39,315 nucleotides of DNA, taken from sequence record PZ445456.1; one strand, 5' to 3'. The stretch's first letter is position 1. Each line of letters opens with the position of its first letter. The notes under the pieces are model-generated. The model was not told the DNA's origin, did not search any database, and saw only the letters and a program-made list of their open reading frames with translations. Source of the stretch: a phage. Of the stretch, positions 2,295-38,258 are shown in pieces. Made by a program: the position numbers and the translations under genes.

Positions 2295-2317
2295 TAATAC
2301 GACTCACTATTGGGAAG
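2295..2317 (+). promoter_or_regulatory. Phage RNAP promoter, right-end (phiOR-equivalent)
   Basis: TAATACGACTCACTATTGGGAAG; 22/23 match to this genome's own promoter consensus; position after gene 19 region as in T7. Confidence 0.7.
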
Positions 2318-3218: not shown

Positions 3219-3241
3219 TAATACAACTCACTATTGAGGAT
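3219..3241 (+). promoter_or_regulatory. Phage RNAP promoter, left-end (phiOL-equivalent)
   Basis: TAATACAACTCACTATTGAGGA; shares the ACAACTC variant I recall for T7 phiOL; lies upstream of the sigma70 promoter cluster. Confidence 0.6.
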
Positions 3242-4584: not shown

Positions 4585-5508
4585 ATGAACTACACCGACA
4601 TTCAGGCACGTCTGGCAATCATCAAGTCACTCCCGATTAGCGAACTGGACAAGCGCCAGCCTCTTCTGGTTGCACTGGCTGCTGACATCGTGAACGGTGA
4701 GACAAGCGATGGCAACGATACAGATGGGTCGCAGGGTCTTGAGTATCAGGACTATTGGCACACATTGGGTGCACTGATGCGTGATGCTGGATTCAAGATG
4801 TTAGGCAATGGTCACTTCAGTGCGGCCTACTCGCACGAAATGTTACCGGGTCGAGTCATCAAGGTTGGCTTTAAGAAAGAGGATTCAGGCGCTGCGTACA
4901 CTGCGTTCTGTAGGATGCACCAAGGCCGAGCGGGTATCCCTAACGTCTATCACGTAGCACGACATGCAGGTTGCTATACGGTCGTACTGGACCGCTTAAA
5001 AAGCTGTGACCGCTACGCTAACGATGTGCACGCAAAGTATGCAAGTGCTGCGCAGGAGTTCATTGAGTGCACTGGAGGTGATGCTGATTGGTACGCACAA
5101 TATGTTAGCAAGGAGTTCATTGAGACGTGCAAGATGATTCGTGAGTTCTTCCACGGTATTGCATCTTTCGACATGCACAGCGGGAACATTATGTTCGATG
5201 ACAACGATGTCCCGTACATCACTGACCCGGTTAGCTTCTCACATGACCGTGAACGTGAGGACGGTTTCCCTCTGGACCCTGAAGCACTGCTGGCTGAGGT
5301 CGAGGCTGTAGCGAAAGAGCGCATGATTGAACGTTGCCGCAACCGCAAGGCCAAGTGTGACCCTAACGGAACCTTTCAGGTTAACCGCAAGGCCGCAATG
5401 AAACGCCGTAAGCGCAACCGCAAGTTACGCGCCAAACGTGATGCTGAGGCTGCAAAGCACTTTGTACAGCATAGACATGGACAAAGCAGGAACTACGGGA
5501 CGCTATGA
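4585..5508 (+). CDS. 0.7: Gene 0.7 protein kinase (N-terminal kinase portion), 307 aa
   Basis: [15 protein letters not shown]...[22 protein letters not shown]...GIPNVY...[10 protein letters not shown]...[13 protein letters not shown]...[11 protein letters not shown] matches T7 gp0.7 as recalled. Confidence 0.9.
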
Positions 5509-5690
5509 GGGCGCAAGATTGGATGGGTGCGCACAACTGGCACAACATGTGGTTGCACAACAACATTGCAGACGTAATCAAGATTGACCAAGTGAACGGC
5601 CTTAAGTGGCAACTAGGGGACCGCCTCGCAATACAAGCGGGTCTCCCTTTGAACATCGACAAGGCACTTGACGCTCAACTGATGGGCTGA
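5505..5690 (+). CDS. Gene 0.7 C-terminal (host shut-off) domain as a separate ORF, 61 aa
   Basis: Different frame, ATGA overlap with the kinase ORF stop; C-terminus [21 protein letters not shown] matches the T7 gp0.7 C-terminus (..LTLNIDKQLDAMLMG). Confidence 0.6.
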
Positions 5691-5763: not shown

Positions 5764-8415
5764 ATGACTAACGTAATCAACGCACCAAAGAACGACTTCT
5801 CTGACATCGCTAACGCAATCCAGCCGTACAACATTCTGGCTGACCACTACGGTGCACAGCTTGCAGCTACACAGCTTGAGTTAGAACACGAAGCGCACAC
5901 CGAAGGCGAGAAGCGTTTCCTTAAGGCAATGGAACGTCAAATCAAAGCGGGTGAGTTCGGCGATAACGCAGTAGCTAAACCTCTCCTGTCATCCCTCGCA
6001 CCGAAGTTTATCGAGGCGTGGAACACTTGGTTCGCTGAAGTGGAAGCGAAGCGTGGCAAGCGTCCAGTGGCCTACAATCTGGTACAGAAGGTTACACCTG
6101 AAGCTGCTGCATTCATCACACTGAAGGTCACGCTGGCTTGCTTGACCAAAGAGGAATACACGAACCTTCAATCGGTCGCCACTAAGATTGGTCGCAGTAT
6201 TGAAGACGAGCTACGTTTTGGTCGCATCCGTGACGAAGAAGCGAAGCACTTTAAGAACCATGTACAAGAAGCACTCAACAAGCGCGTTGGTATCGTCTAC
6301 AAGAAAGCATTCATGCAAGCGGTTGAAGGCAAGATGTTAGACGCTGGTCAACTACAGACCAAGTGGACCACATGGACACCTGAAGAAGCAATTCACGTTG
6401 GTGTACGCATGTTGGAACTACTCATTGGTTCTACTGGTCTCGTTGAGTTACACCGCCCGTTCGCTGGGAACATCGAGAAGGATGGCGAGTACATCCAGTT
6501 AACAGAACAGTATGTAGACCTGTTATCCAAACGTGCTGGCGCACTGGCTGCAATCGCTCCGATGTATCAGCCTTGCGTGGTCCCGCCTAAGCCTTGGACT
6601 TCTCCGGTCGGCGGTGGCTATTGGGCTGCTGGTCGCAAGCCTCTCTCTCTGGTTCGCACTGGTAGCAAGAAGGGACTGGAACGTTACAACGACGTGTACA
6701 TGCCTGAAGTTTACAAGGCGGTGAACATCGCACAGAATACTCCTTGGAAGATTAACAAGAAGGTTCTGGCAGTGGTCAACGAGATTGTGAACTGGAAGCA
6801 TTGCCCGGTTGAAGATGTACCCGCTCTGGAACGTGGAGAACTTCCGGTCAAACCTGATGACATCGACACCAACGAGGCATCACTCAAAGCATGGAAGAAA
6901 GCGGCCTCCGCAATCTACCGTAAAGAGAAGGCTCGCGTGTCTCGTCGCATGAGCATGGAGTTCATGTTGGGTCAAGCCAATAAGTTCGCACAGTTTAAAG
7001 CTATCTGGTTCCCGATGAATATGGACTGGCGCGGTCGTGTGTACGCGGTCCCGATGTTCAACCCGCAAGGCAACGACATGACCAAAGGCTTGCTGACGCT
7101 CGCTAAAGGTAAACCAATCGGTGTAGATGGGTACTACTGGCTGAAGATTCACGGTGCTAACACTGCTGGCGTGGACAAGGTGGACTTTGCAGAACGCATC
7201 AAGTTCATTGATGACAACCATGAGAACATCCTGAGCGTAGCGGCTGACCCAATTGCTAACACTTGGTGGGCCGAGCAAGACTCTCCGTTCTGCTTCCTCG
7301 CGTTCTGCTTCGAGTATGCAGGTGTGCAACACCACGGGATGAACTACAACTGCTCTCTTCCGCTGGCGTTCGATGGTAGCTGCTCCGGTATTCAGCACTT
7401 CTCCGCGATGCTCCGTGATGAGGTTGGCGGTCGTGCGGTTAACCTGCTGCCGAGCAAGGAAGTACAGGACATCTACCGCATCGTTGCGGAACGTGTGAAC
7501 GAAATCCTGAACCAAGATGTTATCAACGGGACCGACAACGAAGTAGAGACCGTGACCAACAAGGACACAGGGGAAATCACTGAGAAGCTCAAGCTGGGTA
7601 CTAAAGAACTAGCTGGTCAGTGGCTGGCCTATGGTGTGACTCGCAAGGTCACTAAGCGTTCAGTCATGACATTGGCTTACGGTTCCAAAGAGTACGGCTT
7701 CCGTGACCAAGTTCTTGAGGACACCATTCAGCCAGCTATCGACGATGGCAAGGGCTTGATGTTCACTCAACCGAACCAAGCGGCTGGCTATATGGCTAAA
7801 CTGATTTGGAACGCCGTAACGGTGACTGTGGTCGCTGCGGTTGAGGCAATGAACTGGCTGAAGTCTGCTGCTAAACTGCTGGCTGCTGAGGTCAAGGACA
7901 AGAAGACCAAAGAGGTTCTGCGCAAACGCTGTGCGGTACATTGGGTAACTCCTGATGGCTTCCCTGTGTGGCAGGAATACCGTAAGGCAGTACAGACCCG
8001 CTTGAACCTGATGTTCTTAGGTCAGATTCGTTTGCAGCCTACCGTGAACACCAACAAGGATAGCGGCATTGATGCACGTAAGCAGGAGTCAGGTATCGCA
8101 CCTAACTTTGTTCACTCAATGGATGGTAGCCACCTGCGCATGACTGTGGTCCGCTCCAATGAGGTCTACGGTGTGGAATCGTTCGCACTGATTCACGACT
8201 CCTTTGGCACTATCCCTGCTGATGCTGGCAACCTGTTTAAAGCAGTGCGTGAAACTATGGTCAACACTTACGAAGAGAACGATGTACTTGCAGACTTCTA
8301 TGAGCAATTTGCTGACCAGTTGCACGAATCACAGCTTGACAAGATGCCTGAGATGCCAGCTAAAGGTTCTCTGGACCTGCAAGAAATCCTTAAGTCAGAC
8401 TTTGCGTTTGCCTAA
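5764..8415 (+). CDS. 1: Single-subunit DNA-dependent RNA polymerase, 883 aa
   Basis: Collinear match to T7 RNAP over the full length; motif C IHDSFGT and specificity-loop residues R746/N748/R756/Q758 present (QTRLNLMFLGQIRLQPT). Confidence 0.98.
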   Translation: MTNVINAPKNDFSDIANAIQPYNILADHYGAQLAATQLELEHEAHTEGEKRFLKAMERQIKAGEFGDNAVAKPLLSSLAPKFIEAWNTWFAEVEAKRGKRPVAYNLVQKVTPEAAAFITLKVTLACLTKEEYTNLQSVATKIGRSIEDELRFGRIRDEEAKHFKNHVQEALNKRVGIVYKKAFMQAVEGKMLDAGQLQTKWTTWTPEEAIHVGVRMLELLIGSTGLVELHRPFAGNIEKDGEYIQLTEQYVDLLSKRAGALAAIAPMYQPCVVPPKPWTSPVGGGYWAAGRKPLSLVRTGSKKGLERYNDVYMPEVYKAVNIAQNTPWKINKKVLAVVNEIVNWKHCPVEDVPALERGELPVKPDDIDTNEASLKAWKKAASAIYRKEKARVSRRMSMEFMLGQANKFAQFKAIWFPMNMDWRGRVYAVPMFNPQGNDMTKGLLTLAKGKPIGVDGYYWLKIHGANTAGVDKVDFAERIKFIDDNHENILSVAADPIANTWWAEQDSPFCFLAFCFEYAGVQHHGMNYNCSLPLAFDGSCSGIQHFSAMLRDEVGGRAVNLLPSKEVQDIYRIVAERVNEILNQDVINGTDNEVETVTNKDTGEITEKLKLGTKELAGQWLAYGVTRKVTKRSVMTLAYGSKEYGFRDQVLEDTIQPAIDDGKGLMFTQPNQAAGYMAKLIWNAVTVTVVAAVEAMNWLKSAAKLLAAEVKDKKTKEVLRKRCAVHWVTPDGFPVWQEYRKAVQTRLNLMFLGQIRLQPTVNTNKDSGIDARKQESGIAPNFVHSMDGSHLRMTVVRSNEVYGVESFALIHDSFGTIPADAGNLFKAVRETMVNTYEENDVLADFYEQFADQLHESQLDKMPEMPAKGSLDLQEILKSDFAFA

Positions 8416-8422
8416 CGGAATC

Positions 8423-8445
8423 TAATACGACTCACTATTGGGAGA
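8423..8445 (+). promoter_or_regulatory. Phage RNAP promoter (phi1.1A-equivalent)
   Basis: TAATACGACTCACTATTGGGAGA, exact consensus; followed by a G9 run and an AT-rich CTTTAAG-repeat leader. Confidence 0.8.
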
Positions 8446-9309: not shown

Positions 9310-9581
9310 TGGGTCGCTTATATAGTGGTAACTTAATAGCATACAAAGACGCTATCGAACGCCTCAAAGAAGACCACGATGTGAGTGTGGTCGTTGAGAC
9401 TTTCCGCTATGAGAACTATGCGAGGATGCGCTGGGTATCCGGTGAGACTCTTCGAGTGGTCTTACGGAATGGCTTAGTGTTAACCTCTAAGTGTTTCGAA
9501 CAGGACGATGAAGACGTTCGCTGCAATGCACAGACTGAATGGCTTCGTAAGGTACACAGTGACCTGAAGCACTGGAAGTAA
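9309..9581 (+). CDS. 1.2: Gene 1.2 protein (host dGTPase inhibitor family), 90 aa
   Basis: MGRLYSGNLIAYKDA...DEDV..N..TEWL...DLKHWK matches T7 gp1.2 (MGRLYSGNLAAFKAA...QLKDWK). Confidence 0.85.
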   Translation: MGRLYSGNLIAYKDAIERLKEDHDVSVVVETFRYENYARMRWVSGETLRVVLRNGLVLTSKCFEQDDEDVRCNAQTEWLRKVHSDLKHWK

Positions 9582-9601
9582 TACGACTCACTATTGCGAG
9601 A
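9579..9601 (+). promoter_or_regulatory. Phage RNAP promoter (phi1.3-equivalent)
   Basis: TAATACGACTCACTATTGCGAGA; overlaps the gene 1.2 stop codon. Confidence 0.7.
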
Positions 9602-10801: not shown

Positions 10802-10882
10802 ATGTTATTTCTAATTGTCGCTGTCATTGTTGCCACATTTGCTCTCGTTGTCATTGACGACAATTGCTGGCCTGATTGCTAA
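10802..10882 (+). CDS. Micro-ORF, 26-aa hydrophobic peptide
   Basis: MLFLIVAVIVATFALVVIDDNCWPDC; stop overlaps the next promoter-like element; position of the T7 1.4/1.5 mini-genes. Could be non-coding. Confidence 0.2.
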   Translation: MLFLIVAVIVATFALVVIDDNCWPDC

Positions 10883-10902
10883 TACGACTCACATATGGAG
10901 GA
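10880..10902 (+). promoter_or_regulatory. Variant phage promoter (phi1.6-like)
   Basis: TAATACGACTCACATATGGAGGA; -17..-5 perfect, -4..-2 scrambled (ATA vs TAT). Confidence 0.35.
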
Positions 10903-11707: not shown

Positions 11708-11895
11708 GCAACTTAAACAAAGGGTCACTTGTAAACGGTGACAAGAAGTTCTTCGCAACGGTCGAAGGCCAAGGCCAATCGTTCGAAGTACCTGTGTTCG
11801 CTGCGTCTCTTGAAGAGGCCAACGAGTTAGCTGAATGGCAGTATGTTCCGGCTGGCTTCGCAGTGACACGCATCCGTCCAGACCGAAAGGTTTAA
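11704..11895 (+). CDS. 2: Gene 2 protein, inhibitor of host RNA polymerase, 63 aa
   Basis: [57 protein letters not shown] matches T7 gp2 (MSNVNTGSL...[18 protein letters not shown]). Confidence 0.9.
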
Positions 11896-11915
11896 TAGGA
11901 CTCACTATTGGGAGA
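11893..11915 (+). promoter_or_regulatory. Phage RNAP promoter (phi2.5-equivalent)
   Basis: TAATAGGACTCACTATTGGGAGA; single mismatch at -12. Confidence 0.7.
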
Positions 11916-13580: not shown

Positions 13581-13673
13581 ATGATGATTATTCACGAGAT
13601 GGGCCTGTACGATTTGATTTATCGCCTCGCGTTCATGCTGGCAATGGTCTACATTCTGACCCGCAAGGATTAA
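13581..13673 (+). CDS. Micro-ORF, 30-aa hydrophobic peptide
   Basis: MMIIHEMGLYDLIYRLAFMLAMVYILTRKD; stop overlaps a promoter-like element. Coding status uncertain. Confidence 0.25.
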   Translation: MMIIHEMGLYDLIYRLAFMLAMVYILTRKD

Positions 13674-13693
13674 TAGAACTCACTATGGGAGGA
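13671..13693 (+). promoter_or_regulatory. Variant phage promoter (phi3.8-like)
   Basis: TAATAGAACTCACTATGGGAGGA; deviates at -12, -11 and -1; followed by a GGGAGG..CTCCC leader hairpin. Confidence 0.4.
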
Positions 13694-15617: not shown

Positions 15618-15640
15618 CAATACAACTCACTAATGGGACA
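15618..15640 (+). promoter_or_regulatory. Phage RNAP promoter (phi4.3-like variant)
   Basis: CAATACAACTCACTAATGGGACA; lies in the overlap/gap before gene 4.3. Confidence 0.45.
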
Positions 15641-16449: not shown

Positions 16450-16472
16450 CTATTCAACTCACTAATGGGAGA
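16450..16472 (+). promoter_or_regulatory. Phage RNAP promoter (phi4.7-like variant)
   Basis: CTATTCAACTCACTAATGGGAGA; core -10..+6 conserved, upstream part divergent. Confidence 0.4.
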
Positions 16473-20955: not shown

Positions 20956-20978
20956 TAATACGACTCACTATTGAGAGG
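20956..20978 (+). promoter_or_regulatory. Phage RNAP promoter (phi6.5-equivalent)
   Basis: TAATACGACTCACTATTGAGAGG; perfect -17..-1. Confidence 0.75.
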
Positions 20979-21930: not shown

Positions 21931-23538
21931 ATGGCAAGCTCACAGAAACGTGAAGGCTTCGCGGAGAATGGTGCCAAGGCGGTGTATGACGCATTGAAGA
22001 ACGACCGGAACTCCTATGAGACCCGTGCGGAAAACTGTGCGAAGTACACCATCCCTTCGTTGTTCCCCAAAGACTCCGACAACGCCTCTACTGACTACAC
22101 CACTCCGTGGCAAGCAGTTGGCGCTCGTGGCTTGAACAACTTGGCCTCTAAGCTCATGCTCGCTCTGTTCCCTATGCAGACGTGGATGAAGCTGACAATC
22201 TCTGAGTTCGAAGCGAAACAATTGGTTGCACAACCAGCCGAACTAGCGAAGGTCGAAGAAGGTCTCTCAATGGTCGAGCGAATCTTGATGAACTACATCG
22301 AGTCCAACTCGTACCGTGTGACACTCTTTGAGACCCTCAAGCAGTTGGTCGTTGCAGGTAACGCTCTGCTCTACATTCCTGAACCTGAAGGTGCTTACAA
22401 TCCCATGAAGCTATACCGCCTGTCTTCTTATGTTGTCCAACGAGACGCATTCGGCACGGTGCTACAGATTGTAACCTTAGATAAGACTGCCTATGCAGCA
22501 CTTCCAGAAGACGTGCGAAACGCTATGGACTCCGGTCAGGAACATAAAGGCGACGAAATGATTGATGTGTACACTCACATTTATCTTGACGAAGAAACAG
22601 GAGAATACCTCAAGTACGAAGAGATTGATGGTGTCGAAGTCGAAGGTACAGATGCTTCTTATCCGGTGGACGCTTGTCCTTATATCCCGGTTCGCATGGT
22701 ACGCATTGATGGAGAATCATATGGTCGCTCTTACTGTGAGGAATACTTAGGTGACTTACGGTCCCTTGAGAACCTCCAAGAAGCTATCGTTAAGATGTCA
22801 ATGATTAGTGCAAAAGTTATCGGCTTGGTTAACCCTGCTGGTATCACACAGGTTCGTCGTTTGACCAAAGCACAGACAGGTGACTTCGTGTCCGGTCGTC
22901 CAGAAGACATCTCGTTCCTTCAGCTTGAAAAGGCCGCAGACTTCTCTGTAGCGAAAGCTGTGAGTGAACAGATTGAGGGCCGACTGTCCTATGCCTTTAT
23001 GCTTAACTCCGCTGTTCAACGTACTGGTGAGCGTGTGACTGCCGAAGAGATTCGATATGTCGCATCTGAACTCGAAGATACCCTTGGTGGTGTCTATTCG
23101 ATTCTCTCACAGGAACTTCAGTTGCCAATGGTTCGTGTCCTGCTGAAGCAACTTCAAGCGACCAATCAGATTCCTGAGTTACCGAAAGAGGCCGTTGAGC
23201 CTACTATCAGTACCGGGATGGAAGCATTGGGTCGTGGTCAAGACCTCGATAAGCTGGAACGCTGTATTGCTGCGTGGTCTGCGCTGGCTCCTATGCAGGG
23301 AGACCCGGACATCAACATTGCGACCATTAAGTTGCGCATTGCGAACGCTATCGGCATCGACACTTCTGGTATCCTCAAGACACCTGAAGAGAAACAACAG
23401 GAGATGGCTGAGGCTGCTCAAGGTACTGCACTGGAGAACGCTGCTGCATCTGCTGGTGCTGGTGCTGGTGCACTTGCTACTGCAAGCCCTGAGAACATGC
23501 AAGCTGCTGCTGAACAGGCTGGAATGGTTCCAAATTAA
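21931..23538 (+). CDS. 8: Head-to-tail connector (portal) protein, 535 aa
   Basis: Full-length collinear match to T7 gp8 (YTIPSLFPKDSDNASTDYTTPWQAVGARGLNNLASKLMLALFPMQTWM, LGDLRSLENLQEAIVKMSMIS, TGERVTAEEIRYVASELEDTLGGVYSILSQELQLP). Confidence 0.97.
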   Translation: MASSQKREGFAENGAKAVYDALKNDRNSYETRAENCAKYTIPSLFPKDSDNASTDYTTPWQAVGARGLNNLASKLMLALFPMQTWMKLTISEFEAKQLVAQPAELAKVEEGLSMVERILMNYIESNSYRVTLFETLKQLVVAGNALLYIPEPEGAYNPMKLYRLSSYVVQRDAFGTVLQIVTLDKTAYAALPEDVRNAMDSGQEHKGDEMIDVYTHIYLDEETGEYLKYEEIDGVEVEGTDASYPVDACPYIPVRMVRIDGESYGRSYCEEYLGDLRSLENLQEAIVKMSMISAKVIGLVNPAGITQVRRLTKAQTGDFVSGRPEDISFLQLEKAADFSVAKAVSEQIEGRLSYAFMLNSAVQRTGERVTAEEIRYVASELEDTLGGVYSILSQELQLPMVRVLLKQLQATNQIPELPKEAVEPTISTGMEALGRGQDLDKLERCIAAWSALAPMQGDPDINIATIKLRIANAIGIDTSGILKTPEEKQQEMAEAAQGTALENAAASAGAGAGALATASPENMQAAAEQAGMVPN

Positions 23539-23558
23539 TACGACTCACTAATGGGAGA
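23536..23558 (+). promoter_or_regulatory. Phage RNAP promoter (phi9-equivalent)
   Basis: TAATACGACTCACTAATGGGAGA; overlaps the gene 8 stop codon. Confidence 0.75.
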
Positions 23559-24528: not shown

Positions 24529-24551
24529 TAATACGACTCACTATTGGGAGA
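24529..24551 (+). promoter_or_regulatory. Phage RNAP promoter (phi10-equivalent, major capsid promoter)
   Basis: TAATACGACTCACTATTGGGAGA, exact consensus; predicted start at G24546. Confidence 0.85.
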
Positions 24552-25922: not shown

Positions 25923-25945
25923 CTTAATGACTCACTAATGGGAGG
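25923..25945 (+). promoter_or_regulatory. Variant promoter-like element downstream of Tphi (phi11-like)
   Basis: CTTAATGACTCACTAATGGGAGG; -11..+5 conserved but the upstream half looks like the consensus with one base deleted; activity uncertain. Confidence 0.3.
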
Positions 25946-28973: not shown

Positions 28974-28996
28974 CAATACGACTCACTATTGGGAAG
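28974..28996 (+). promoter_or_regulatory. Phage RNAP promoter (phi13-equivalent)
   Basis: CAATACGACTCACTATTGGGAAG. Confidence 0.7.
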
Positions 28997-36314: not shown

Positions 36315-36337
36315 CAATACGACTCACTATTGGGAAG
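36315..36337 (+). promoter_or_regulatory. Phage RNAP promoter (phi17-equivalent)
   Basis: CAATACGACTCACTATTGGGAAG followed by leader hairpin GGGAAGG..CTTCCC. Confidence 0.7.
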
Positions 36338-36383: not shown

Positions 36384-38258
36384 ATGGCTCTCAAGATTCG
36401 TACCGTAATGACTTATCCGCTAACAGGTGCTGTGGACTTTGCAATCACCTTTGAATACTTAGCGCGTAAGTTCGTGACGGTAACTCTAATTGGTAAAGAC
36501 CGTAAGGAACTGGTTCTCAATCAGGACTATCGGTTCACCACTAAGACACAAATCACTACAACACGCACGTGGACGGCGGCTGACGGATATGACTCTATTG
36601 AGATTCGTCGATACACCTCCGCGACTGACCGTCTGGTTGACTTTGCTGATGGCTCAATCCTTCGTGCATATGACCTAAACATCGCACAGATTCAAACGCT
36701 TCACGTTGCTGAAGAAGCACGAGACCTCACTGCGGATACCATTGGTGTCAACAACGAGGGTCACTTGGATGCGCGTGGTCGACGCATCGTCAATGTAGCT
36801 AACCCTATAGATGATGGCGATGCAGTCAACCTGCGCTCTATCAAGCAGTGGAACGACTCCGCTCTTAACTCTGCAAACAGGGCAAAGGCTTCCGAGGAAG
36901 AAGCAAAGCGACAGACTGATTGGGCCGGACGTATGCGCAATGAGTCAGAACAGTTCCGTAACGAGGCCAATCAACACCGAGCGGTGGCTGAGTCTGCCAA
37001 GGACCAAGCAATTACCGCTAAGAATCAAGCTGAATCGGCAAGAGACCTCGCTTCAGGTTCTCGGAGTGAAGCATCAAGGTTCGCTGAAGAGTCCAACCAG
37101 TATATGTCACGGTCTAAGCAATGGGCTGTCAACCCGGTAGATGTTGTAGTCACAGATGGTGAATACTCCGCGAAGCACTGGCAGCATCATTCTAAGGTTG
37201 AGGCCGACCGCTCGAAGAGAGAGGCTGACCGAGCAACCACTGAGGCTGACAAGCTGGGAAACATGAACGCACTTGCAGGTGCCATTGAGGAAGTAAGTCC
37301 AGACCACGTTGTTTCATGGTCGGCTACAGCTAAGTTTAAAGGTGAACTCATTGCCAACCGCTCAATGACTCTTCGTGCAGCGGATGAACAGGGTGCTATG
37401 GGACAGATGGTTCACGAATATGACGACACAGTCGGACGTCATGTCTCGAATACCTATTGGGCCATCAAGCACCCACATAGAGGAGAATGGCATGTTCCCT
37501 ATAAGATTCTAAACCTACCTAACGATTCTGCGGCGTGGGAGATGCACTTCGGGGACTTAATGCGTTGTTATAATGGATTGAAGGTCGAAGGGTTTAATAA
37601 ATCACTAGATGTAACCAATCAGGCGAATACTGCCGTTCGAACGGTGGCATATGGTCCGGGCGATTTGACCCAAGGGGCGTGGGTGTGTAACACTCGTTGG
37701 AACTTCTACGATTCAGGGTTAGAAATTGGATGGGTTCGAGGTGGTTCTACGAACGGCAACGGCCTAATCCGGTGGAAGCCGGAAGGAACTCAAGCGACAT
37801 ATCATGATATTTGGCTAAACCCGGGCGGTGTGGTGCAGTTCCCCGAGAAGATTCTCGTAGGGGCGGGTGGTGCCTCCGTTGGTGTTGATGGTAATATTGA
37901 TGGCTCACTTTGGGGTGGTAATCTATACGGCTGGCTGAACAACCGCTTAGGTGATCGACCAACGTTTGCTCAAGGAGACGGGCGCTATGTTCGAAAGAGT
38001 GCTGGTTGGGCTGAAGTATGGAGTGGTTCCGCTGGTGGTGGGGTATCCGTAGGTCTCAATCAGGATGTCCGCTGGAGAACTATCTGGATTCAAACTCAAG
38101 GCAGATGGAACCCTGTTCAGATTGGGGACGATGGGGCTTACTATATCTCGTCTATGGGTGGGTGGCTACAGTTCACAATCTCAGACAACGGGAGAACTTT
38201 CCGTAACGATGCAGACAGAAGCTCTGTTCCTACGAGAATCTTGGTTCAAACCCAATAA
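36384..38258 (+). CDS. 17: Tail fiber protein, 624 aa
   Basis: N-terminus (TV.TY.L.G...F.I.FEYLARKFV.VTLIG.DRK.L..N.DYRF...T...T..W..ADGY..IE.RR.TS.TDRLVDF.DGSILRAYDLN.AQIQT.HVAEEARDLT.DTIGVNN.GHLDARGRRIVN) and C-terminal tip (W..VWSGSAGGGVSV) match T7 gp17; central region divergent; internal ATG 36384 with RBS AAGGAGG. Confidence 0.93.
   Translation: MALKIRTVMTYPLTGAVDFAITFEYLARKFVTVTLIGKDRKELVLNQDYRFTTKTQITTTRTWTAADGYDSIEIRRYTSATDRLVDFADGSILRAYDLNIAQIQTLHVAEEARDLTADTIGVNNEGHLDARGRRIVNVANPIDDGDAVNLRSIKQWNDSALNSANRAKASEEEAKRQTDWAGRMRNESEQFRNEANQHRAVAESAKDQAITAKNQAESARDLASGSRSEASRFAEESNQYMSRSKQWAVNPVDVVVTDGEYSAKHWQHHSKVEADRSKREADRATTEADKLGNMNALAGAIEEVSPDHVVSWSATAKFKGELIANRSMTLRAADEQGAMGQMVHEYDDTVGRHVSNTYWAIKHPHRGEWHVPYKILNLPNDSAAWEMHFGDLMRCYNGLKVEGFNKSLDVTNQANTAVRTVAYGPGDLTQGAWVCNTRWNFYDSGLEIGWVRGGSTNGNGLIRWKPEGTQATYHDIWLNPGGVVQFPEKILVGAGGASVGVDGNIDGSLWGGNLYGWLNNRLGDRPTFAQGDGRYVRKSAGWAEVWSGSAGGGVSVGLNQDVRWRTIWIQTQGRWNPVQIGDDGAYYISSMGGWLQFTISDNGRTFRNDADRSSVPTRILVQTQ

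Follow-up and report, generated by a model that had tools for sequence, protein, structure and literature searches.

Seventeen T7-type promoters with a prevailing T at position −1 in a predicted Berlinvirus genome

The window, meaning the whole 39,315-nt stretch of DNA that we analyzed (PZ445456.1), is on sequence grounds a complete, circularly permuted genome of a T7-like Berlinvirus (BA14/Berlin/Kvp1/FE44/285P group). It was collinear with Salmonella phage JSS1 (93.9% identity over 35.9 kb) and with BA14 (90.2% identity over 36.9 of 39.3 kb), and Berlinvirus is named in the taxonomy lines of the records for its closest relatives. The genus threshold in ICTV practice is roughly 70% nucleotide similarity; similarity well above this value and the collinear gene order place the phage in Berlinvirus (Studiervirinae). 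The RNA polymerase (RNAP) is encoded by an 883-aa open reading frame (Table 1) in which two Pfam domains exceeded their gathering thresholds, RNA_pol (375 bits, 5e-112; cut-off 22) and RPOL_N (78 bits, 1e-21; cut-off 30.1). The best solved structure was T7 RNAP (1cez/1qln, 1557 bits; residues 3–883 aligned to 1cez_A), and this full-length alignment, together with both domains, assigns the protein to the T7 RNAP family. Amino acid identity was 75.9% to T7, 98% to BA14 (Escherichia), Kvp1 (Kluyvera), FE44 (Erwinia) and Yersinia phage Berlin, and 99.7% to JSS1, while the gene itself was 98.7% identical to that of JSS1 and 92% to that of BA14 at the nucleotide level. A putative frameshift in gp0.7 maps to 5475–5495.

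Alignment of the specificity loop upheld the reading of the earlier note, which had reported R746, N748, R756 and Q758: all four were found at the exact codons given (7999–8001, 8005–8007 (AAC), 8029–8031 and 8035–8037, respectively), and F755I is the single difference from T7 within residues 746–758 (RLNLMFLGQIRLQ). Their roles have been described (PMC11880802, PMC5937735). T3 RNAP has D at the position equivalent to N748 (loop QKRLDMIF). In the AT-rich recognition loop, which reads EAKRGKRPV, R96 and K98 are kept, since the T7 loop is KAKRGKRPT; a T7-like loop of this kind fits the T7-type TAATA found at −17 to −13 of the promoters described below. Both loops are identical in BA14, Kvp1, FE44 and Berlin. 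The intercalating hairpin diverges from its T7 counterpart HRQNAGVVGQDSETIE (QNAGVVGQ in T7, PFAGNIEK here), and E222G and Y418M are further differences from the T7 enzyme.

Table 1. Coordinates of the RNAP gene, its DNA-reading elements and the 17 promoters (^, boundary between −1 and +1)
Feature	Sequence	Position	Strand	Bits	Remarks
RNAP gene		5764..8415	+		ORF, 883 aa
AT-rich recognition loop	EAKRGKRPV	6043..6069	+		T7 residues 93–101; residues 94–102 here
Intercalating hairpin	HRPFAGNIEKDGEYIQ	6451..6498	+		residues 230–245; diverges from T7
Specificity loop		7978..8073	+		residues 739–770; includes 7999–8037, the span of the earlier note
phiOR	TAATACGACTCACTATT^GGGAAG	2295..2317	+	37.2	syntenic with BA14 phiOR
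phiOL	TAATACAACTCACTATT^GAGGAT	3219..3241	+	29.9	near BA14 phiOL
phi1.05	exact consensus	8423..8445	+	39.1	8 nt past RNAP stop codon; syntenic with BA14 phi1.05
phi1.1	CAATACGACTCACTAAT^GGGAAA	9055..9077	+		PWM and synteny
phi1.3	TAATACGACTCACTATT^GCGAGA	9579..9601	+		PWM and synteny
phi1.5	CTATACGACTCACTATG^GAGGAA	10772..10794	+	29.4	syntenic with BA14 phi1.5; −1 G or shorter spacer
phi1.6	TAATACGACTCACATAT^GGAGGA	10880..10902	+	26.3	non-canonical −4 to −2; syntenic with BA14 phi1.6
phi2.5	TAATAGGACTCACTATT^GGGAGA	11893..11915	+		PWM and synteny
phi3.8-equivalent	TAATAGAACTCACTATG^GGAGGA	13671..13693	+		PWM and synteny; −1 G or shorter spacer
phi4.3	CAATACAACTCACTAAT^GGGACA	15618..15640	+		PWM and synteny
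phi4.7	CTATTCAACTCACTAAT^GGGAGA	16450..16472	+		PWM and synteny
phi6.5	TAATACGACTCACTATT^GAGAGG	20956..20978	+		PWM and synteny
phi9	TAATACGACTCACTAAT^GGGAGA	23536..23558	+		PWM and synteny
phi10	exact consensus	24529..24551	+		PWM and synteny
phi11-equivalent	CTTAATGACTCACTAAT^GGGAGG	25923..25945	+	23.6	weakest of the 17; T-run immediately before
phi13	CAATACGACTCACTATT^GGGAAG	28974..28996	+		PWM and synteny
phi17	CAATACGACTCACTATT^GGGAAG	36315..36337	+		PWM and synteny

A position weight matrix (PWM) scan recovered exactly 17 promoters (23.6–39.1 bits), all on the plus strand and clearly separated from the next best sites (1.7 bits on the plus and 2.4 bits on the minus strand), in line with the roughly 17 promoters of shared consensus proposed earlier. 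Their consensus is TAATACGACTCACTA(T/A)TGGGAGA, and the pattern of the earlier note, allowing up to three mismatches, matched 11 sites compared to 0 expected (100 shuffles). Positions −9 to −5 are CTCAC and +1 is G throughout, and −2 is either T (11 sites) or A (6 sites). At −12 to −10 we found C in 14, G in 13 and A in all 17 promoters, which bears out the T7-type CGA, as opposed to ACC, that had been claimed for these positions. The claim that −1 is T in every copy did not hold: T is present in 15/17 promoters (information content 1.5 bits), the exceptions being phi1.5 and phi3.8, which both read CACTATG^G and can be taken either to have G at −1 or to have a spacer 1 nt shorter. The phi1.5 exception is conserved throughout Berlinvirus. 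In addition, phi1.6 has CACATAT where the others have CACTA(T/A)T. Judged from these bases, the binding half (−17 to −5) is T7-type and not T3-type. Indeed, G−11, A−10, C−9, T−8 and C−7 occur here together with N748, R756 and Q758 (plus R746), the pairing of the T7 specificity class, and N748 with CGA differs from the T3 pairing of D at the equivalent position with ACC. The T3 promoter (AACCCTCACTA) shares the CTCACTA core and the GGGAGA start.

Sixteen of the promoters map one-to-one onto phiOL to phiOR of BA14, and the seventeenth, at 25923, matches the annotated phi11 of Kvp1 (CTAATAGACTCACTAATGGGAGG), a site that is unannotated in BA14. The genome thereby carries the Berlinvirus set of phiOL, 1.05, 1.1, 1.3, 1.5, 1.6, 2.5, 3.8, 4.3, 4.7, 6.5, 9, 10, (11), 13, 17 and phiOR. 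BA14, Kvp1, FE44 and Berlin have the same consensus, slots and two exceptions with G at −1, with the promoters of BA14, Kvp1 and FE44 already annotated as such, so that the consensus is not the phage's own, as had been thought, but common to Berlinvirus and Ningirsuvirus. Logos for Kvp1, whose promoters are closest to those of Berlin, and for Berlin were published in 2008 (PMC2579914). Differences from these four phages were at strain level, comprising I237 instead of V237 in the RNAP, which is also found in JSS1 and at some other loci, and, relative to BA14, a few substitutions in individual promoters (e.g. CACCTAT in BA14 phi1.6). As far as sequence can tell, the 17 promoters and the T7-type RNAP are an ordinary Berlinvirus signature, already known and annotated, and not a new specificity class. 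The sequence can be annotated as a Berlinvirus that follows the standard programme of 17 promoters, each of which can be named by its T7/BA14 slot; beyond correct annotation, this has little significance.

The consensus is identical to the T7 class III promoter from −17 to −2 and from +1 to +6 and differs at −1, where T7 has A. With T7 the phage also shares 15 promoter slots in the same gene order, in addition to the four specificity-loop residues and the AT-rich loop, and a slot-by-slot comparison of these 15 gave 12 changes from A to T, two from A to G and one unchanged position. The one T7 promoter with T at −1 is the class II promoter phi2.5 (within CACTATT), whose annotated +1 is A (TAATACGACTCACTATT^AGGGAA), whereas every one of the 17 promoters here has G at +1. 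Conservation of the −1 T within the lineage had been set beforehand as a refuting test. Using a PWM blinded at −2 and −1 on 17 Berlinvirus and 15 T7-clade loci, we found it to be conserved: the 190 Berlinvirus sites had T in 153, G in 37 and A in none, compared to A in 159 and T in 13 of the 172 T7-clade sites. Outside these clades, −1 was A at 4/4 sites in K11 and mixed A and C in T3. In Ningirsuvirus (Dickeya phages JA10 and Ninurta), T was present at −1 of all late promoters (6/6 in JA10), which contain the same CGACTCACTATTGGGAG core but a CCATG upstream element instead of TAATA, with a matching AT-rich loop (GSKGGHRPV). The Ningirsuvirus RNAP is 75% identical, groups with Berlinvirus in the RNAP tree (76% bootstrap) and likewise has RP(F/Y)AG at the hairpin base. 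IME15, the RNAP of which belongs to the T7 clade (90% identical to T7, T7-type hairpin), had −1 T in 5/13 early and middle promoters, and the PZ445456.1 consensus occurs among these letter for letter. The strongest late promoters were always clade-typical at −1, with T in Berlinvirus and JA10 and A in T7 and IME15. RNAP loci at 55–59% identity were uninformative on −1, because a CACTA-anchored promoter caller gave only 2–4 chance matches per locus.

We searched the RNAP for a protein determinant of the −1 base. At 100 positions of the alignment, the enzymes of the −1T phages (Berlinvirus, Ningirsuvirus) could be told apart from those of the −1A/C phages (T7 and T3 clades), and at 54 of these positions the two −1T lineages have the identical residue. 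Such co-variation was rejected as evidence because the two −1T lineages group together; their −1T state probably reflects a single evolutionary event, and a determinant is therefore not separable by comparison. Hairpin residues P232 and F233 recur in the other −1T clade (RPYAG in JA10/Ninurta), and P232 with an aromatic residue at 233 is suggestive, but this link is confounded by shared ancestry, and the T7-type hairpin of IME15 coexists with −1 T. E222G was ruled out, as JA10 and Ninurta keep E222 yet use −1 T. Melting energy is likewise insufficient as the sole cause: TATT exceeds TATA in stability by 0.59 kcal/mol, but the T3-like TAAA is similarly stabilized (0.54 kcal/mol) and T−2A costs T7 RNAP almost nothing (81–95% activity).

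Taken together, these data make it highly probable that the phage is a Berlinvirus with T7-type promoter reading, and that its −1 T is a derived, clade-wide trait not peculiar to it. The binding half (−17 to −5, TAATACGACTCAC) does not differ from that of T7 and by homology would be read in the same way, with the AT-rich loop reading −17 to −13, N748, R756 and Q758 reading −11 to −8 in the major groove, and R746 as the fourth of the conserved residues that contact bases. The initiation half is one base off T7 (TA(T/A)T^GGGAGA versus TATA^GGGAGA), and the −1 T would be a derived state common to all Berlinvirus and Ningirsuvirus, whose RNAPs group together. Position −1 should lie within the AT-rich stretch melted by the intercalating hairpin; in T7 RNAP structures, the template base at this position is stacked against W422. 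According to the two-domain promoter model, the non-template strand is dispensable from −4 (PMC11617373), so that any effect of −1 would be expected to act via the template-strand A or a melting change of ∼0.6 kcal/mol (nearest-neighbour ddG −0.59 kcal/mol), and not through the specificity loop. The +1 would be the first G of GGG, an assignment by homology because our literature search found no mapped transcription start for any Berlinvirus. We infer that the cognate RNAP accepts T7 promoters with −1 A and mildly prefers T at this position; the same search found no biochemical comparison of −1A and −1T templates with an RNAP from Berlinvirus. Experimental support for cross-recognition exists for the reciprocal direction, T7 RNAP reaching ∼43% of wild-type output on the exact A−1T variant (PMC5937735 S2 file). 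Since a dozen homologous slots went from A to T together, a modest shift in −1 preference, located outside the specificity loop, is likely. The earlier suggestion that the fixed −1 T tunes initiation is plausible and gains indirect support from the concerted switch at 12/15 slots. A strong shift is made less likely by IME15, which indicates that −1 T is tolerated by T7-type enzymes in nature. The wider point is that −1 changed in concert while the DNA-reading loops stayed T7-type. This may mean that single-subunit RNAPs have a weak preference for particular bases in the DNA melted for initiation, which, if true, could give a little additional control over promoter strength in T7-based expression systems.

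Alternatively, the −1 T could be functionally meaningless, with an indifferent RNAP and one ancestral promoter type that spread by duplication or recombination and was then inherited. This is possible, though in our judgment the less probable account: covariation analysis detects only the specificity loop, and −1 lies outside those base-specific contacts (PMC11880802, a study with 470 RNAPs and 1067 promoters); T7 RNAP is still active on A−1T; and −1 is a mixture of A and T in IME15 and of A and C in T3. However, an indifferent enzyme sits poorly with the complete lack of A among 190 Berlinvirus sites despite ∼10% genome divergence, with 12 positionally homologous slots that differ from T7 in one direction, with the clade-typical base on the strongest late promoters, and with an information content at −1 comparable to that of recognized contact positions. 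At the other extreme, Berlinvirus and Ningirsuvirus RNAPs might truly prefer T over A at −1 through a discrete, transferable determinant outside the specificity loop that covariation studies missed. This we regard as doubtful; the hairpin base (Q232P, N233F/Y) or other residues of the N-terminal domain may then be candidate sites.

It is very improbable that the −1 T serves as insulation, reducing the use of the phage's promoters by the RNAPs of co-infecting T7-type phages or the activity of its own enzyme on foreign promoters. The output of T7 RNAP on the exact A−1T variant TAATACGACTCACTATTGG did fall to ∼43% (73.3 compared to a wild-type mean of 169, measured with one barcode in a single high-throughput experiment; PMC5937735 S2 file), but a drop of roughly 2-fold falls well short of orthogonality. 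Moreover, the binding element and specificity loop match those of T7, where selection for insulation would have produced the reverse, and true specificity switches in the family use −12 to −8 with residue 748 (PMC11880802). Equally hard to credit is a wrong register, with the start one base from the assumed +1 and the T not at −1: our literature search found no mapped start and phi1.5 and phi3.8 are one base short between CACTAT and GG, but the distance from the invariant CTCAC (−9 to −5) to GGG equals that of T7 in 15/17 sites, and the annotators of BA14 and Kvp1 chose the same register.

The promoter pattern proposed in an earlier note matched 11 sites in the window with ≤3 mismatches, compared with none in 100 shuffles. 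A position weight matrix (PWM) built from pattern sites with up to 7 mismatches yielded a clean set of 17 promoters, all on the + strand and scoring 23.6-39.1 bits, in line with the approximately 17 claimed; the best site outside this set reached 1.7 bits on the + strand and 2.4 bits on the - strand. Counting from the presumed start (+1, the first G of GGGAGA), the A at -10, CTCAC at -9 to -5 (including A at -6) and G at +1 were invariant, while C at -12 was present in 14 and G at -11 in 13 of the 17 promoters, and position -2 was T in 11 and A in six. The T at -1, said to be present in every copy, was found in 15; the exceptions, sites 10772 and 13671, read CACTATG followed by G and either carry G at -1 or are one base shorter. 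At the phi1.6 slot, directly 5′ of a Shine–Dalgarno-like GGAGGA, the window has CACATAT where the consensus has CACTA(T/A)T and BA14 has CACCTAT, a site that is off-consensus yet conserved.

This consensus is not the phage's own, as had been suggested. The promoters annotated in GenBank for BA14, Kvp1 and FE44, once extracted, gave TAATACGACTCACTA(T/A)TGGGAGA, the same as in the window, promoter by promoter, and both sites with G at -1 are likewise present there. Sixteen of the 17 promoters map to the named BA14 promoters phiOL to phiOR, and the remaining one (25923) corresponds to Kvp1 phi11. The Kvp1 genome paper of 2008 had already found the Kvp1 promoters to be nearest to those of phage Berlin and provided sequence logos (PMC2579914). 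The feature is an ordinary, already known signature of a well-populated genus, annotated for years. The RNA polymerase (RNAP) gene shares 98.7% identity with that of Salmonella phage JSS1 and 92-95% with those of ∼47 further GenBank phages, including BA14, 285P, Kvp1 and FE44, and every GenBank record examined is classified as Berlinvirus. The window is collinear with JSS1 (93.9% identity over 35.9 kb) and BA14 (90.2% over 36.9 kb). Since the right and left genome ends of both phages join at 2861/2862, the window is, judging by this alignment, a complete genome, linear in nature but assembled in circularly permuted form, with a single copy of the terminal repeat. Parts of tail-fibre gene 17 had no megablast-level match to JSS1 or BA14, although their flanks are 88-96% identical, a divergence typical of host-range mosaicism. 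The gp0.7 protein kinase ORF stops early (307 aa vs 366-367 aa in BA14/JSS1), and its conserved C-terminal part (...LDAQLMG) carries on in another frame after an A-run that is AAA in the window and AAAA in BA14, reflecting either a homopolymer sequencing error or genuine loss of the C-terminal part.

Features of the window and of its RNAP (codons located by counting from 5764)
Feature	Position	Strand	Remark
RNAP ORF (gene 1)	5764..8415	+	883 aa, longest ORF of the region
R746 codon	7999-8001	+	
N748 codon	8005-8007	+	AAC
R756 codon	8029-8031	+	
Q758 codon	8035-8037	+	
Residue 222	6418-6438		E222G, T7 to all Berlinvirus RNAPs
Intercalating hairpin			QNAGVVGQ (T7) to PFAGN(I/V)EK (Berlinvirus)
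Residue 418			Y418M, T7 to Berlinvirus
Antisense ORF in RNAP gene	6880-7515	-	211 aa
phi1.6 promoter	10880-10902	+	
gp0.7 region	4585-5690		ORF stop at 5508, frameshift at A-run 5483-5485
Gene 17	36384-38258		
Gene 17, C-terminal half	37277-38258		no match to JSS1
Gene 17 region	36782-37966		no match to BA14

The window RNAP is 75.9% identical to T7 RNAP, its nearest solved structure. It contains both Pfam domains of T7-like single-subunit RNAPs (RNA_pol and RPOL_N), so the product name 'N4-like RNA polymerase' used in RefSeq Berlinvirus copies (e.g. NC_011040, NC_015249, NC_048105) is misleading for what is a single-subunit RNAP of the T7 type. The codons for R746, N748, R756 and Q758 lie exactly where the earlier note had placed them. 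Within the specificity loop (746-758), F755I is the sole difference from T7 RNAP, and the AT-rich loop retains AKRGKRP, which fits a promoter binding element (-17 to -5) identical to that of T7. In the roles described for these residues (PMC5937735, PMC11880802), N748 would read -11/-10, R756 -9 and Q758 -8. T3-type recognition was rejected, as the window has neither ACC at -12 to -10 nor D at 748. The antisense ORF inside the gene is most likely a chance ORF, given that every one of the 17 phage promoters lies on the + strand, while the best opposite-strand site scores only 2.4 bits.

Across 47 IMG/VR loci encoding RNAP relatives, scanned with a PWM blind to -2 and -1, the 190 sites of 17 Berlinvirus loci had T at -1 in 153 cases, G in 37 and never A or C. 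The 15 loci of the T7 clade had A at 159 and T at 13 of 172 sites, and T3-type loci were divided between A and C. The -1 T is thus conserved in the lineage, and both the loops and these clade-wide counts support the original proposal of T7-type recognition combined with a -1 T fixed in the lineage. Among 15 promoter slots shared with T7, 12 have A in T7 and T in the window, two have A vs G, and only phi2.5 has T in both. In the Dickeya phages JA10 and Ninurta (Ningirsuvirus; consensus CCATGCGACTCACTATTGGGAG), all six late promoters (of JA10) carry -1 T, and the RNAP of this genus clusters with those of Berlinvirus in 76% of bootstraps, whereas Klebsiella phage K11 has A in 4/4 late promoters; -1 T therefore looks derived in a single clade.

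Outside the two DNA-reading loops, Berlinvirus RNAPs consistently depart from T7 at three places, namely the hairpin and residues 222 and 418. Ningirsuvirus shares P232 and an aromatic residue at 233, but this candidate determinant is confounded by common descent: 100 positions distinguish -1T from -1A enzymes, and at 54 of these the two -1T lineages agree in their residue; since grouped lineages share residues by descent, no single determinant can be picked out. E222G is absent from Ningirsuvirus, which keeps E; in T7 RNAP, E222K is known to make the enzyme more active on non-cognate promoters (PMC8874028). In a large covariation study, the specificity loop and -11 to -7 were the sole coupled pair (PMC11880802).

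Position -1 belongs to the melted AT-rich stretch (-4 to -1), where removing the non-template strand costs no transcription (PMC11617373), so any effect of this position would be expected to depend on the base in the template strand or on melting. By nearest-neighbour energies, TATA and TATT in context are only 0.59 kcal/mol apart, a gap as large as that for T3's TAAA. The barcoded library of Komura et al. (PMC5937735, S2 file) includes exactly the single variant TAATACGACTCACTATTGG, on which T7 RNAP gave 73.3 RNA/DNA reads, against a mean of 169 over five barcodes on the wild-type promoter (43%); T-2A retained 81-95%. The Berlinvirus consensus is therefore usable by T7 RNAP at roughly half strength. 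That a dozen homologous sites switched the same way, and that A occurs at none of the 190 Berlinvirus sites despite ∼10% genome divergence, argues that the enzyme of each clade may mildly prefer its own -1 base rather than being indifferent. A strong effect is disfavoured by Stenotrophomonas phage IME15 (JX872508; T7 clade), whose RNAP is 90% identical to T7 with a T7-type hairpin, yet 5 of its 13 early and middle promoters have -1 T, one an exact copy of the window consensus; all seven of its late promoters have A.
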